The position numbers and the translations under genes were made by a program. From sequence record OR062945.1: 64,000 nucleotides of DNA. One strand, written 5' to 3'. The stretch's first letter is position 1. Every line of letters starts with the position of its first letter. The notes beneath the pieces are model-generated. The model saw nothing but the letters and a program-made list of their open reading frames with translations. It did no database searches and had not been told where the DNA came from. Below are positions 38,698-54,806 of this stretch, in pieces. The stretch comes from Escherichia phage 308Ecol101PP.

Positions 38698-38772
38698 GGC
38701 CCTGTAGCTCAATGGGAGAGCTGTCAGCTCATAACTGATAGGTAGCTGGATCGAAACCAGCCAGGGTCACCA
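38698..38772 (+). tRNA. tRNA with CAT anticodon (Met or lysidine-type Ile), encoded CCA
   Basis: Hand-folded cloverleaf: acceptor GGCCCTG/CAGGGTC, D stem GCTC/GAGC, anticodon stem GTCAG/CTGAT with loop CTCATAA, T stem GCTGG/CCAGC. Confidence 0.85.
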
Positions 38773-38775
38773 ATT

Positions 38776-38852
<77 letters not shown>

Positions 38853-47026: not shown

Positions 47027-47259
47027 GTATAGCAATTTACATTAAATCAGAATCATGTGATAGTTATCTGTACACATACGATAAAGACGTGTCAGAAGAA
47101 AAAATCAAAGACGATCTTAATATGGACCTTGATATGTTCTGTCCTATTGCAGATTACAAACTTGCGGTCTCTAATAGTGAAAGTCCATCTAAAGAAACGC
47201 GCATTGAAGAATTTATGTCCGAATTAATGGCTAAATCATGGGACCGAGATGATGAGTAA
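47023..47259 (+). CDS. hypothetical protein
   Basis: 78 aa; ATGA-coupled start. Confidence 0.5.
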   Translation: MSIAIYIKSESCDSYLYTYDKDVSEEKIKDDLNMDLDMFCPIADYKLAVSNSESPSKETRIEEFMSELMAKSWDRDDE

Positions 47260-47707
47260 GAAAAATAAAGTGAAAGAACTATCAGCCGGTATTATTTTCC
47301 TTACCGAAGATAAAGAATTATTCATGGGGCGTGTAACTGGTTCTCGTCCTAAAGGTTCTTTAGCTCATCGGTGGGATATTCCTAAAGGTCGTGTCGAGCC
47401 CGGTGAATCTCCTATCGAAGCCGCTATTCGTGAATGCGAAGAAGAAACTGGGTTTACACAATATGACCCTGCCTTCCTGAAAGACCTAGGTGAACATCAT
47501 TACTCAGACAATAAGAATATTCATCTGTTCCTATATACCATCCCTGTAGAGCACGAGCAATTCAGAAACAGTGTTTGTAATTCCTATCATACGTTCCCAG
47601 ACGGACGACAGATTCCTGAATTTGATGCATTCGCTTTAATTAAACCTTCTCAGTGGGAATATGTAATGGGCAAATCATTATATAAGGTGCTCACTACCAT
47701 CCTATAA
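47249..47707 (+). CDS. nudE: Nudix hydrolase
   Basis: 152 aa; Nudix box GRVEPGESPIEAAIRECEEETGF; adjacent to e as T4 e.1. Confidence 0.9.
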   Translation: MMSKKNKVKELSAGIIFLTEDKELFMGRVTGSRPKGSLAHRWDIPKGRVEPGESPIEAAIRECEEETGFTQYDPAFLKDLGEHHYSDNKNIHLFLYTIPVEHEQFRNSVCNSYHTFPDGRQIPEFDAFALIKPSQWEYVMGKSLYKVLTTIL

Positions 47708-47741
47708 GTAATAAATACCTCCTATAAACGTGGGAGGTATT

Positions 47742-48230
47742 ATGAATATATTTGAAATGCTTCGTAATGACGAAGGTCTTAGACTGACTTTATACAAAGA
47801 CACTGAAGGCTTTTGGACAATTGGCATAGGTCATTTAGTAACAAAGAACCCGTCTTTAGCTGTAGCTAAAGCTGAACTTGACAGAATGATCGGGCGTAAA
47901 TGCAACGGTACAATTACCCTTGATGAGGCTGAAAAGTTATTTAATGAAGACGTTGATAAAGCTGTTCGCGGAATCTTGGGTAATGTTAAACTTAAACCGG
48001 TATATGATTCTTTAGATGCGGTTCGTCGATGTGCATTGGTCAATATGGTCTTCCAAATGGGTGTAGCAGGCGTCGCTGGTTTTACTAATTCTCTTCGTAT
48101 GCTTCAACAGAAACGTTGGGATGAAGCGGCAGTAAATCTAGCACAATCTAAATGGTATCGTCAGACACCTAATCGCGCGAAACGCGTAATCTCAACATTT
48201 AAAACAGGAACTTGGAAAGCGTATATATGA
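47742..48230 (+). CDS. e: lysozyme (endolysin)
   Basis: 162 aa [31 protein letters not shown]..., near-identical to T4 lysozyme; GGGAGG RBS. Confidence 0.96.
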
Positions 48231-50663: not shown

Positions 50664-51026
50664 ATGAAAGCATATCAAATTCTTGAAGGCACACACAAAG
50701 GCACTATTTATTTTGAAGACGGTACTCAAGCCCGGATTATTGTCTCTAAGACTTTTAAAGAAGACGCTATTGTAGACCCGGAAATTTTCTACGGTTTGAA
50801 TGCCCGTGAAATTGAAATTGAACATCAACCTAAAGTTAAAATTGAAGGTGGTCAACACCTGAACGTTAACGTTCTGCGTCGTGAAACTCTGGAAGATGCA
50901 GTTAAGCATCCGGAAAAATATCCGCAGCTGACCATCCGTGTATCTGGTTATGCAGTTCGCTTTAACTCTCTTACTCCAGAACAGCAGCGCGACGTTATCG
51001 CTCGTACCTTTACTGAGAGTCTATAA
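50664..51026 (+). CDS. grcA: autonomous glycyl radical cofactor (GrcA/YfiD-like)
   Basis: 120 aa; C-terminal half ...[59 protein letters not shown] carries the RVSGY glycyl-radical motif. Confidence 0.9.
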
Positions 51027-51783: not shown

Positions 51784-52242
51784 ATGACTATCAATTCAGA
51801 CGTTTTTATCCGCCGCAATAAACTCCGTCGAATCTTTGAAACGGAGTTCCGCAAAATAAATGCCGGTATAAAAGATGCTGCAAAGTCTCTTGGACTACCA
51901 GGCTTTCATATCAAGTATTCTCAACATCTCTTAGATCGTGCCATCCAGAGAGAAATAGATGAGAACTACGTTTTTGAATTATTTCGTAAAGTAAAAAATC
52001 ATGTTAAAGAAGTTGCAGAATTTTTATCAATGCCGGCACGTCCAGATGTTGATGAAGATTTTGTCGAAGGTGTCGAATACCGTCCAGGCCGTTTAGAAAT
52101 AACTGACGGAAATCTTTGGTTAGGACTTACAGTTTGTCGCGAAAATCCAGCATTCAAAATGAAGACTCTTCAATGCAGAATGGCTATTATTAACAGTAAA
52201 CGACTACCAGGAAAAGCTTCTAAAGCAGTGATTAAAATCTAG
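51784..52242 (+). CDS. regB: endoribonuclease RegB
   Basis: 152 aa; size, position near tk/denV and recalled similarity to T4 RegB. Confidence 0.7.
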   Translation: MTINSDVFIRRNKLRRIFETEFRKINAGIKDAAKSLGLPGFHIKYSQHLLDRAIQREIDENYVFELFRKVKNHVKEVAEFLSMPARPDVDEDFVEGVEYRPGRLEITDGNLWLGLTVCRENPAFKMKTLQCRMAIINSKRLPGKASKAVIKI

Positions 52243-52250
52243 AGGTAAAC

Positions 52251-52793
52251 ATGAGAAAAGCACTACTCGCTGGTCTATTTGCTCTTTCATTATCAGCACA
52301 TAGCTCCGAGCATACTTTTAGTAATGTCCAACTCGATAACTTGAATTATGCTTATCAGTTTGGGGAACAGTTTTCTAAGGACGGAAAATTTAAAACGCAT
52401 GAAAATATGCATAAGAAAGGACTTGGATACATAATGGCCGCAATACTATGGCAGGAATCATCTGCCGGTATTAATCTTAAAGATAAGAAAGGTCACCATG
52501 CGTATGGAATGTTCCAAAATTATCTACCAACAATGAGGGCAAGAATTAACCAGCTTGGTTATAATATGACTGATGCCCAAATTAAGAAAATGCTATCTAA
52601 GCGGTCTAATTCAGCCAGATGGGCTTATATCGAATTTTCTTATTGGTTAAATATACATAATGGGGATATAAGAAAAGCTATATCCTCATATAATGCGGGA
52701 TGGAAGACAAGTGCTGGAAGTAAATATGCTTCTGAAGTCCTAGAAAAGGCTAATTACCTTAAATCAAACAAACTACTGGAAATAAAAGAATGA
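52251..52793 (+). CDS. exported lytic transglycosylase-like protein (SLT/GH23 motifs)
   Basis: 180 aa; signal peptide MRKALLAGLFALSLSAHS; WQESS, AYGMFQ and YNAG motifs. Confidence 0.55.
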   Translation: MRKALLAGLFALSLSAHSSEHTFSNVQLDNLNYAYQFGEQFSKDGKFKTHENMHKKGLGYIMAAILWQESSAGINLKDKKGHHAYGMFQNYLPTMRARINQLGYNMTDAQIKKMLSKRSNSARWAYIEFSYWLNIHNGDIRKAISSYNAGWKTSAGSKYASEVLEKANYLKSNKLLEIKE

Positions 52794-53137
52794 CCAAAAT
52801 GTTGGCTTTAATAGTTGGCTTGGTTTCATTTAACGCTCTTGCTAATACTACATATACTGATGTAACGGAGTATACAAACAGAACAGCGTCTGATTATTGT
52901 GGTAAAAGTCAAGAGTGTAAAGTAGATTTTTCACAAAAATTGTTATATGCGTATAAAGACGGAGAAAAAGATGGGGCGTCTAGTAGGTTCAAGGCGTCTA
53001 CCTTAATTAAAAGATACTATAAAAAATGGCAAATATTAGAATGCTCGGTGGCGGAACCTAAAGATAAGGCAGCATGCAATTCTATGGTGGACCGTCTAGT
53101 TGACTCTTATACTAGAGGACTTGCAGCAAGTGATTAA
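52790..53137 (+). CDS. exported Cys-containing small protein
   Basis: 115 aa; signal peptide MTKMLALIVGLVSFNALA; four Cys. Confidence 0.5.
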   Translation: MTKMLALIVGLVSFNALANTTYTDVTEYTNRTASDYCGKSQECKVDFSQKLLYAYKDGEKDGASSRFKASTLIKRYYKKWQILECSVAEPKDKAACNSMVDRLVDSYTRGLAASD

Positions 53138-53597
53138 AAACTATATCAAGGGCGATATTGTCGCCCTGTTTTCTAAAGGTAATAATATCGCTCATGGGTG
53201 TAATTGTTTTCATACAATGGGCGCCGGCGTGGCAGGACAATTAGCAAAGGCTTATCCAAAAATTCTGGAAGCCGATAAACTTCAAACCGAATTTGGAGAC
53301 GAGTCTAAACTCGGGACTTATTCGGTTTATGAAAAATATTTTAAGACCCATAAAGCTTATTGCTTTAATCTTTATACACAGTTTGAGCCTGGACCTAATT
53401 TTGAGTACTATGCTTTAATGAATTGTATAATAGAATTAAATGAATTCGGAAAGAATAAGATAACAAAGCCTGTACTTTATATGCCAAGAATTGGTGCAGG
53501 TATCGGTGGCGGAAACTGGGATGTCATCGAAGAGATTTTAGATACGTATTCCACTAAACTAGAAATTGTGATTGTTGATTGGGAACCATTATTATGA
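53130..53597 (+). CDS. macro-domain-like protein (start uncertain; longest frame begins at TTG 53100)
   Basis: IAHGCNCFHTMGAGVAGQL and RIGAGIGGGNW resemble macro-domain Gly-rich motifs. Confidence 0.4.
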   Translation: MIKNYIKGDIVALFSKGNNIAHGCNCFHTMGAGVAGQLAKAYPKILEADKLQTEFGDESKLGTYSVYEKYFKTHKAYCFNLYTQFEPGPNFEYYALMNCIIELNEFGKNKITKPVLYMPRIGAGIGGGNWDVIEEILDTYSTKLEIVIVDWEPLL

Positions 53598-53806
53598 ATA
53601 TACATTATCCACATCCATATGACCCAAAGAATAAGGCAGTAATTATTCGTCAATGGGAACGCATTTGTCGTACCAAATGTCCAATTAATAGTCCACATGA
53701 TGTAGATAAAGACTACATCGGAACATTCGTTGAATATACCTTTATTGATAAGAAAGGCCGTAAACAACATGTAGAAGAATATTGCTTAAAGGTGTCATGG
53801 CTATGA
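53594..53806 (+). CDS. hypothetical protein
   Basis: 70 aa; ATGA coupling. Confidence 0.45.
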   Translation: MNIHYPHPYDPKNKAVIIRQWERICRTKCPINSPHDVDKDYIGTFVEYTFIDKKGRKQHVEEYCLKVSWL

Positions 53807-54009
53807 GTCAAACAAAAATTCTTACAGGTGCTAAATGCGAAAAATGCGAATGGCCTGTAGTTTTTGCTTTATGCAATAACGAAATGGCTTGTGATTTTGA
53901 TTATTGGTGTTACTGTTCGAACAAAGGTTGTAGCAATCATAAAGGTGAAGGGTTTTACTCAGGATTTTACCCTTACCCGGATTTCGTTAAAGAAGGTGAA
54001 CCTAAATGA
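53803..54009 (+). CDS. Cys-rich small protein (possible zinc-binding)
   Basis: 68 aa; CEKCEW...CNNEMACDFDYWCYCSNKGC. Confidence 0.45.
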   Translation: MSQTKILTGAKCEKCEWPVVFALCNNEMACDFDYWCYCSNKGCSNHKGEGFYSGFYPYPDFVKEGEPK

Positions 54010-54188
54010 AATTAACTAAAGAAGAGAAAGCTAAACTGTTCGAACTTATCCATGACCTATTGGATGAACAAGCAGCCACCAATGCGTATGATGAATATGC
54101 TCCTTTAACAGATGAAGAATATCAAGCATTGTTGGAATCATTTGACAGGAAAGAACAAGAACTTATTGACTACGTGAATTCACTATAA
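54006..54188 (+). CDS. hypothetical acidic protein
   Basis: 60-aa ORF, ATGA coupling. Confidence 0.45.
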   Translation: MKLTKEEKAKLFELIHDLLDEQAATNAYDEYAPLTDEEYQALLESFDRKEQELIDYVNSL

Positions 54189-54197
54189 GGGACTCTT

Positions 54198-54779
54198 ATG
54201 GCTAGTTTAATTTTTACATATGCCGCTATGAACGCTGGTAAGTCTGCTTCATTACTTACTGCCGCACATAACTATAAAGAACGTGGCATGGGTGTATTAG
54301 TTCTTAAACCGGCTATTGATACTCGCGATTCAAAAGGTGAAATAGTCTCTCGTATTGGTATTCGTCAGGACGCCAATATAATTACAAAAGACATGGATAT
54401 CTTTGAATTCTATAAATGGGCTGCAGCACAAAAGGATATTCATTGTGTATTTGTTGACGAAGCTCAGTTCTTAACTACTGAAAAGGTGTATCAACTTAGT
54501 CGTATTGTTGACGTATACAATGTGCCGGTAATGGCATATGGACTACGAACAGATTTTAAAGGTAATCTATTTGAAGGTTCTCAAGCATTAATGGCTATTG
54601 CCGATAAGCTTGTTGAACTTAAAGGTGTCTGTCATTGTGGTAAAAAGGCCACAATGGTAGCTAGAGTCACGGAAGACGGACTTCCAATTACGGATGGCAG
54701 TCAAATTGAAATTGGTGATACCGATAGATATGTGTCATTATGCCGGAAGCATTGGAATGATTTGACAGGGTTGTTATAA
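54198..54779 (+). CDS. tk: thymidine kinase
   Basis: 193 aa; P-loop AAMNAGKSASL, C-terminal CHCG...C zinc motif; same length as T4 Tk. Confidence 0.92.
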   Translation: MASLIFTYAAMNAGKSASLLTAAHNYKERGMGVLVLKPAIDTRDSKGEIVSRIGIRQDANIITKDMDIFEFYKWAAAQKDIHCVFVDEAQFLTTEKVYQLSRIVDVYNVPVMAYGLRTDFKGNLFEGSQALMAIADKLVELKGVCHCGKKATMVARVTEDGLPITDGSQIEIGDTDRYVSLCRKHWNDLTGLL

Positions 54780-54782
54780 ATA
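54775..54782 (+). promoter_or_regulatory. late promoter
   Basis: TATAAATA 25 nt upstream of ATG at 54807. Confidence 0.45.
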
Positions 54783-54806
54783 CTAATATCTAACCAAGAG
54801 GTATAT

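Follow-up and report, generated by a model that had tools for sequence, protein, structure and literature searches.

The DarT2 toxin of the DarTG2 defence system targets thymidine, and phages T2 and T4 without the NADAR factor AdfN are still DarTG2-resistant (PMC11825919). Transposon sequencing of phage T4 found tk.4 to be the single significant gene depleted on a DarTG2-expressing host, and a clean tk.4 knock-out was DarTG2-sensitive on E. coli; the gene was accordingly named adfM, for anti-DarT factor Macrodomain, and its product was proposed to remove ADP-ribose from DNA enzymatically (bioRxiv 10.1101/2025.11.20.689424, a preprint). Here, we analysed a stretch of 64,000 nucleotides (nt) of Escherichia phage 308Ecol101PP (sequence record OR062945.1; the window, below), in which positions 53130..53597 of the plus strand encode a stand-alone macrodomain of 155 residues, the orthologue of T4 Tk.4/AdfM. 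We consider it likely that this protein hydrolyses the ADP-ribosyl-thymidine made by DarT2, through a mechanism of the type proposed for the bacterial macrodomain SCO6735.

Macrodomains that reverse thymidine-linked and uracil-linked ADP-ribosylation have been grouped as the TARG1-like class (PMC13036486). SCO6735 from Streptomyces coelicolor carries Gln85 at the position of the catalytic lysine of TARG1 and DarG and cleaves thymidine-linked ADP-ribose from DNA; its Q85A and Q85E mutants are inactive and N27S is nearly inactive, and its authors proposed that the reaction is water-mediated, with Gln85 holding the distal ribose in position (PMC9411070). Among phages, gp104 of PhiKZ, independently named AdfM, removes ADP-ribose from DarT2-modified DNA in vitro, and its N23A mutation reduces the activity (PMC13309987). 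Macrodomains were found in 41% of myoviruses in one survey (PMC9503650). The gene studied here was likewise already known, as T4 has carried a macro-domain or 'A1pp phosphatase' annotation for it since genome publication and a counter-defence role has been published for the T4 orthologue. The modestly new points are that the T4-type AdfM bears the glutamine of SCO6735 instead of the lysine of DarG, and that it is non-orthologous to the PhiKZ AdfM.

The original prediction, made from the window's letters alone, described a macro-domain-like protein with an ambiguous start. In the list of open reading frames of the window, the frame spans 53100..53597 on the plus strand (165 residues, TTG start, TGA stop) and carries both glycine-rich motifs, ...NNIAHGCNCFHTMGAGVAGQLAKAY... 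and ...MPRIGAGIGGGNWDV... The elements of the gene that are needed below are as follows.

53130..53597, plus strand: macrodomain coding sequence, 155 residues, GTG start, TGA stop; orthologue of T4 tk.4/adfM
53115..53119, plus strand: Shine-Dalgarno-like GAGGA, 10 nt 5′ of GTG 53130, a putative ribosome-binding site
53100..53129, plus strand: ten-codon upstream extension with TTG 53100 and a second TTG at 53121, judged untranslated as part of the macrodomain protein
53193..53228, plus strand: predicted loop 1 of the ADP-ribose pocket, H22-G-C-N25-C-F-H-T-M-G-A-G33
53367..53381, plus strand: strand end N80-L-Y82-T83-Q84, with Q84 at the position of the catalytic lysine of TARG1 (K84) and DarG (K80)
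53484..53519, plus strand: predicted diphosphate-binding loop 2, P119-R-I-G-A-G-I-G-G-G-N-W130

The two loops singled out beforehand as macro-like, IAHGCNCFHTMGAGVAGQL and RIGAGIGGGNW, are both in frame and conserved, and the protein matched positions 2-117 of the 118-position Pfam profile Macro (PF01661) with E = 1.5e-5; its 25.4 bits exceed the gathering cut-off of 22. It also matched PHROG 335 (7e-66), a family labelled 'phosphatase'. A single-sequence search of PDB sequences returned BT1257 (2.8e-10), yeast Poa1p (7.4e-9), SCO6735 (1.3e-4), TARG1 (~5e-4) and two DarG macrodomains (1.2e-3 and 7.9e-3), and with a profile of 63 phage and metagenome relatives the matches sharpened to 2.7e-17 for BT1257, 6.4e-17 for TARG1, 1.1e-14 for SCO6735, 1.5e-13 for Poa1p and 8.5e-13 for Mycobacterium tuberculosis DarG. 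The AlphaFold2 model built from the same 63-relative alignment has six strands and five helices, in the three-layer alpha/beta/alpha arrangement of the macro fold, and is of high confidence (predicted local distance difference test, 95.9; predicted template modelling score, 0.91). In Foldseek searches of the PDB, the leading matches to this model were all macrodomains at probability 1.00, several of them ADP-ribose complexes: TARG1 (4.2e-10), Poa1p (1.7e-9), DarG (2e-7), SCO6735 (3.8e-6) and the BT1257-like entry 2AFC, followed by coronavirus and alphavirus macrodomains, also at probability 1.00. A missing macro-domain match or an unrelated fold, either of which was to count against the original prediction, was thus not what we found. 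Judged by sequence score and predicted fold alike, the window protein is a stand-alone macrodomain of the TARG1/ALC1-like class.

Next to this, the gene is the orthologue of T4 tk.4, because the two proteins share 83% identity over 155 of 155 residues, at equal length, and because the order regB-vs.1-vs-tk.4-tk.3-tk.2-tk.1-tk is common to the window and T4. The T4 protein (NP_049723) is annotated as 'phosphatase; contains A1pp phosphatase motif'. The two proteins have every family-invariant residue in common, and their genes share the neighbourhood, the overlap of the start codon with the end of vs and the ATGA junction with tk.3. A megablast search with positions 52200-54800 matched 657 phage records, the top ones being Escherichia phages AV117, TU01 and JS09 and O157 typing phages at 98.7-99.3% identity, all Straboviridae of the genus Mosigvirus, and the window is a Mosigvirus, that is, T4-like, genome.

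The residues lining the predicted pocket are strongly conserved. Among the 63 relatives, G23, N25 and G33 of loop 1 are invariant and H22, C24, C26, F27, M30 and G31 are at least 90% conserved, while in loop 2 P119, I121, G122 and G124 are invariant and I125, G127, G128 and W130 are at least 90% conserved; A35, D49, G62, N80, Y82 and Q84 are invariant as well. N25 aligns with the conserved asparagine of DarG and of PhiKZ AdfM, in the latter the site of the activity-reducing N23A mutation, and loop 2 aligns with PRIGCGLAGGKW of BT1257, PRIGCGLAGGTW of SCO6735 and PRIGCGLDRLQW of TARG1. We aligned the family profile with hhalign to human TARG1 (98.4%) and M. tuberculosis DarG (98.0%), whose query sequences had been checked against their PDB entries; Q84 stands opposite K84 and K80, respectively, and a MAFFT alignment also sets Q84 at the lysine of TARG1 and DarG. 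G126 stands opposite D125 of TARG1 in the hhalign alignment, so that the Lys84/Asp125 dyad of TARG1 is absent from the window protein, which has Q84/G126 instead. In the profile alignment, Q84 is also matched by a glutamine of BT1257, a protein without assigned function (NMIGQ versus NLYTQ). Q84 and N25 together give the glutamine and asparagine signature of SCO6735, both residues being present and invariant, with the equivalence to Q85 and N27 drawn transitively through TARG1 and DarG.

Compared with SCO6735 (PDB 5E3B), the window protein is similar in being a stand-alone TARG1/ALC1-like macrodomain with glutamine in place of lysine, a positioning asparagine, a PRIGxGxxGGxW loop and no adjoining DarT, and the Foldseek template modelling (TM) score is 0.71. 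The two differ in that identity is only ~22%, that SCO6735 has mobile-loop lysines where the Tk.4 family has none, and that SCO6735 is a cellular protein that has been biochemically characterised. The best structural and sequence matches are human TARG1/OARD1 (PDB 4J5R), yeast Poa1p (PDB 6LFR), a known phosphatase that is 25 residues longer, and Bacteroides BT1257 (2FG1/2AFC).

With the macrodomains of DarG (Thermus aquaticus 5M31/5M3E and M. tuberculosis 5M3I), the window protein shares the fold class (TM 0.72-0.77), the conserved asparagine and the glycine loops, and the toxin countered in the T4 genetic experiment is the same, DarT2; in place of the catalytic Lys80 of the DarG P-T-K motif it has Q84. 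Identity as DarG itself was considered and rejected: the protein scored 28.8 bits against a cut-off of 250 with the NCBIfam model NF048014, aligning only to model positions 4-146 of 338, and 30.2 bits with the PADLOC DarG model (positions 4-145 of 329); in these matches the C-terminal DarT-binding domain of DarG is absent from the 155-residue protein; the catalytic lysine is missing; and the adjoining genes in the window are vs and tk.3, with no DarT neighbour. This leaves unweakened the claim that the protein does the same job as the DarG macrodomain. PhiKZ gp104 is, like the window protein, a stand-alone phage macrodomain acting against DarTG2 (Cell Rep 2026, PMC13309987). Unlike the window protein, it is 35% identical to M. 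tuberculosis DarG (E = 3e-31) and keeps the F-P-T-K lysine motif, and a BLASTP comparison of gp104 with the window protein gave just a 23-residue match. The T4-type and PhiKZ-type AdfM are thus different, non-orthologous macrodomain lineages. The name AdfM has been given to the two by two separate groups (10.1101/2025.11.20.689424; PMC13309987).

The ambiguity of the start was real, since the longest frame, from TTG 53100, overlaps the upstream vs homologue (52790..53137) by 38 nt, and GTG 53130 had been named as a plausible alternative. We compared the start regions by script in six genomes, those of the window phage, T4, JS10, CC31, Cronus and an Acinetobacter phage. The position matching GTG 53130 is ATG in all five orthologues, and each of them begins with M-I. 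T4 and JS10 have an in-frame stop directly before this ATG, and in CC31, Cronus and the Acinetobacter phage, stops lie 3-8 codons 5′ of it, with no start codon between. In T4 the start region reads cGAGGAttgagtactagATGATTGTAAAATATATCAAGGGCGAT and in the window aGAGGActtgcagcaaGTGATTAAAAACTATATCAAGGGCGAT; the GAGGA, its 10-nt spacing and the second codon are all alike, and the GTG of the window aligns with the ATG of T4. The RefSeq record NC_041863 (98.7% identical DNA) places its coding sequence, named 'phosphatase', at coordinates equal to 53130..53597 of the window, and in tblastn matches to relatives below 90% identity the alignment begins at residue 9-11 of the 165-residue frame in nearly all records listed. 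Because the matches of the relatives begin there, the ATG of the orthologues aligns and the RefSeq coordinates agree, GTG 53130 is taken as the true start, with a predicted product of 155 residues. TTG 53100 and TTG 53121 were ruled out as starts by the in-frame stops, or the lack of any start codon, at these places in the orthologues; the stretch 53100..53129 belongs, in another frame, to the 3′-terminal part of the vs homologue.

The same gene is labelled 'hypothetical protein', 'phosphatase' or 'macro domain protein' in other records. In the near-identical record of phage TU01 (MZ560701.1; 4018..4398, equal to 53217..53597 of the window), it is begun at an internal ATG, that of Met30. This start is a mis-annotation, as its product would lack the first strand together with most of the first ADP-ribose-binding loop, loop 1; in this phage group the gene properly starts at GTG 53130.

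Given the assignment to Tk.4/AdfM, we propose the following course of events. In the host, DarT2 of the DarTG2 system would ADP-ribosylate thymidines in single-stranded phage DNA and so block replication. Loop 1 (H22..G33) and loop 2 (P119..W130) of the phage macrodomain would form a cleft that takes up the ADP-ribose, and hydrolysis of the ribose-thymine bond would release free ADP-ribose, restore the DNA and allow replication to resume. In this step the invariant Q84, held by the invariant N25, would position the distal ribose for attack by water, with no catalytic lysine involved; by analogy, the chemistry is probably like that proposed for SCO6735 and not like that of DarG. Mutagenesis of AdfM should therefore follow SCO6735, with Q84 and N25 as the targets, and not K80 of DarG, because glutamine replaces the catalytic lysine in the T4-type proteins. 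The suggestion in the original prediction that a phage copy could counter ADP-ribosylating defence toxins holds for the orthologue, as T4 tk.4 is needed on DarTG2-expressing E. coli (10.1101/2025.11.20.689424), and a matching role in the window phage is what we would expect.

Several points weigh against this proposal. The evidence for the Tk.4 family is genetic only, from a preprint on T4 (10.1101/2025.11.20.689424), and the DarTG2 phenotype is established in T4 only, from whose protein that of the window differs at 17% of residues. The catalytic lysine that is essential in DarG and TARG1 is missing. The equation of Q84 with Q85 of SCO6735 is only transitive, through TARG1 and DarG (PMC9411070), and the mobile-loop lysines K89 and K94 of SCO6735, which aid DNA binding, are without counterpart in Q84-FEPGPNFEY. 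Finally, bacterial relatives are not linked to DarT (see below), and the ancestral substrate of the family may have been something else.

Of the other readings, one holds that the protein is mainly an enzyme for small molecules, such as an ADP-ribose-1′′-phosphate phosphatase, an O-acetyl-ADP-ribose deacetylase or an enzyme that degrades immune signals derived from ADP-ribose, with DNA activity secondary or absent. It draws on the similarity to Poa1p (7.4e-9 by sequence, TM 0.78-0.81), in which the phmmer alignment pairs H22 with H23 and T29 with S30, residues mutated in PDB entries 6lfs and 6lft, and on the database names 'phosphatase' and 'O-acetyl-ADP-ribose deacetylase'; these names, however, are automatic transfers and not tests, and the label 'phosphatase' is probably misleading. 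T4-infected E. coli also has no known source of ADP-ribose-1′′-phosphate, which counts against this reading. The authors of a comparative survey argued for soluble ADP-ribose derivatives as the main targets of phage macrodomains (PMC9503650), and the bacterial relatives at 80 loci without DarT neighbours fit with that. The sole reported phenotype of the T4 orthologue is nevertheless DarTG2-specific, and the glutamine and asparagine pair matches that of SCO6735, which is active on DNA, so we regard a mainly small-molecule enzyme as unlikely. Another reading has the protein reverse other macromolecular ADP-ribosylation, whether uracil-linked on RNA or on protein, including that made by the phage enzymes Alt, ModA and ModB. 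T4-like phages encode ADP-ribosyltransferases, which speaks for it; Alt and Mod, however, act on arginine, and TARG1-like macrodomains are not known to cleave that linkage, and the alt and mod genes are outside the 64,000-nt window. Also in its favour, TARG1, DarG and SCO6735 remove uracil-linked ADP-ribose from RNA (PMC13036486), and SCO6735 and TARG1 act on protein substrates (PMC9411070). Set against the reported tk.4 phenotype, which is DarTG2 sensitivity only, this reading seems to us rather improbable, and so far nothing supports the earlier idea that the protein may process ADP-ribosylation products of the phage itself.

The protein could also act on DarT2 itself, neutralising the toxin by stoichiometric binding or inhibition instead of hydrolysis. 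Such inhibition has a precedent, in that catalytically dead SCO6735 Q85A, DarG K80A and TARG1 K84A inhibit DarT in vitro, SCO6735 most strongly (PMC9411070). The pocket residues are strictly invariant even in phage and bacterial relatives without DarT, however, which argues for catalysis, and the DarT-binding domain of DarG is missing, leaving inhibition by binding a very improbable alternative. That the reading frame is non-functional, or that the longer form from TTG 53100 is the product, would find support in the TTG frame being the longest and in a weak GGTGGA 8 nt 5′ of TTG 53100. Against this stand the homologues in 2,795 phage records and 18,024 cluster representatives, the confidently predicted fold and the stop codons of the orthologues in the region of the extension, and we give this reading almost no weight. 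We therefore retain the hydrolysis of DarT2-made ADP-ribosyl-thymidine as the likely function.

The Tk.4 macrodomain family is large and ordinary. By tblastn, a homologue is encoded in 2,795 of 50,697 phage records, from phages whose hosts include Escherichia, Klebsiella, Salmonella, Pseudomonas, Vibrio, Acinetobacter and Aeromonas, and an exhaustive profile search returned the 18,024 cluster representatives at E <= 1e-3, with 1,210 at E <= 1e-30. In a bacterial genome collection, 341 stretches encode relatives of 35-45% identity, on chromosomal contigs from many phyla. At 80 of these bacterial loci (L009-L088), the relatives are stand-alone genes of ~150 residues on large chromosomal contigs; their carriers include the Roseobacter group (Ruegeria, Shimia), Desulfobacter, Verrucomicrobia, Planctomycetes (Stieleria), Hymenobacter, Vibrio and others. 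All 80 have the H-G-x-N ... N-x-Y-T-Q signature, and Q84, N80, Y82, D49 and W130, which lie outside the patterns used to find the loci, are invariant among them. No DarT2 neighbour was detected within 6 kb of any of the 80 (tblastn, E <= 1, with one DarT2 query and limited sensitivity), and with this one query and 6-kb flank an origin as an 'orphan antitoxin' was rejected.

It is an even call whether Tk.4/AdfM is a phage branch of a large family of such stand-alone bacterial macrodomains, which would use the invariant asparagine and glutamine pair, as proposed for SCO6735, in place of the lysine of DarG and TARG1, and not a captured DarG antitoxin. If it is, phages would have gained macrodomains against DarT2 from different lineages on at least two occasions, once as T4 Tk.4 (with glutamine) and once as PhiKZ gp104 (with lysine), and the glutamine-type enzymes may have a wider substrate range than the DarTG2 phenotype by itself would indicate, for example uracil-linked ADP-ribose on RNA.

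Around the macrodomain gene, the window contains the following features.

51784..52242: RegB (Pfam REGB_T4, 8.8e-69)
52251..52793, plus strand: vs.1-like gene with a weak SLT transglycosylase match (18.8 bits, under the cut-off)
52790..53137, plus strand: vs homologue, directly 5′ of the macrodomain gene
53149..53167, plus strand: hairpin with an 8-bp stem, AGGGCGAT-ATT-GTCGCCCT, followed by GTTTTCT; codons 7-13, 19 nt past the start
53594..53597, plus strand: ATGA overlap of the tk.4 stop (TGA 53595-53597) with the ATG (53594) of the tk.3 homologue
53594..53806: tk.3 homologue, the downstream reading frame (Pfam DUF7202, 1.4e-38)
between the macrodomain gene and thymidine kinase: three small genes (DUF7202, Phage_zn_bind and DUF7438)
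54198..54779: thymidine kinase

The genes are closely packed. GTG 53130 overlaps the vs homologue by 8 nt (GTGATTAA), the stop of the latter being TAA at 53135-53137, and the ATGA arrangement at the downstream end is the same in T4, suggesting translational coupling of tk.4 and tk.3. The macrodomain gene is probably expressed from this tightly packed vs-tk.4-tk.3 cluster. Promoter-like sites in the region are not enriched, with 15 seen against 16.8 expected from shuffled sequence. The hairpin at 53149..53167 was terminator-like in a terminator scan, with a perfect stem and an RNAfold energy of -13 kcal/mol; it is identical in T4 and has one different loop base in JS10, whose protein is ~57% identical, and comparison of the sequences showed that CC31, Cronus and the Acinetobacter phage lack it. 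The hairpin codons are identical at 6/7, 6/7 and 5/7 positions in the comparisons, against 50-60% in the rest of the gene. This excess of identical synonymous codons is only suggestive, being not significant and resting on too few codons to claim selection, and the significance of the hairpin is uncertain.

Elsewhere in the window, a Nudix hydrolase frame (47249..47707, plus strand; Pfam NUDIX, 2e-16) lies directly 5′ of a lysozyme-like frame (47730..48230), a pair that occupies the position of T4 e.1 and e. The T4 e.1 enzyme is reported to act as an ADP-ribose hydrolase; in that case, the Nudix enzyme could clear away the ADP-ribose freed by the macrodomain. The N-terminus of the Vs homologue ('valyl-tRNA synthetase modifier') is signal-peptide-like (MTKMLALIVGLVSFNALANT), which is odd for the supposed partner of a cytoplasmic enzyme, and that of the vs.1-like protein is signal-like as well (MRKALLAGLFALSLSAHS). 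The Rfam scan of the window returned no families besides two adjacent tRNA genes, tRNA-Met (CAT; 38698..38772, plus strand) and tRNA-Arg (TCT; 38776..38852, plus strand), which were found by ARAGORN and Rfam. Finally, a frame of 120 residues at 50664..51026 (plus strand) has the C-terminal glycyl-radical motif RVSGYAV (Pfam Gly_radical, 2e-18), and its relatives are labelled GrcA, the autonomous glycyl radical cofactor.

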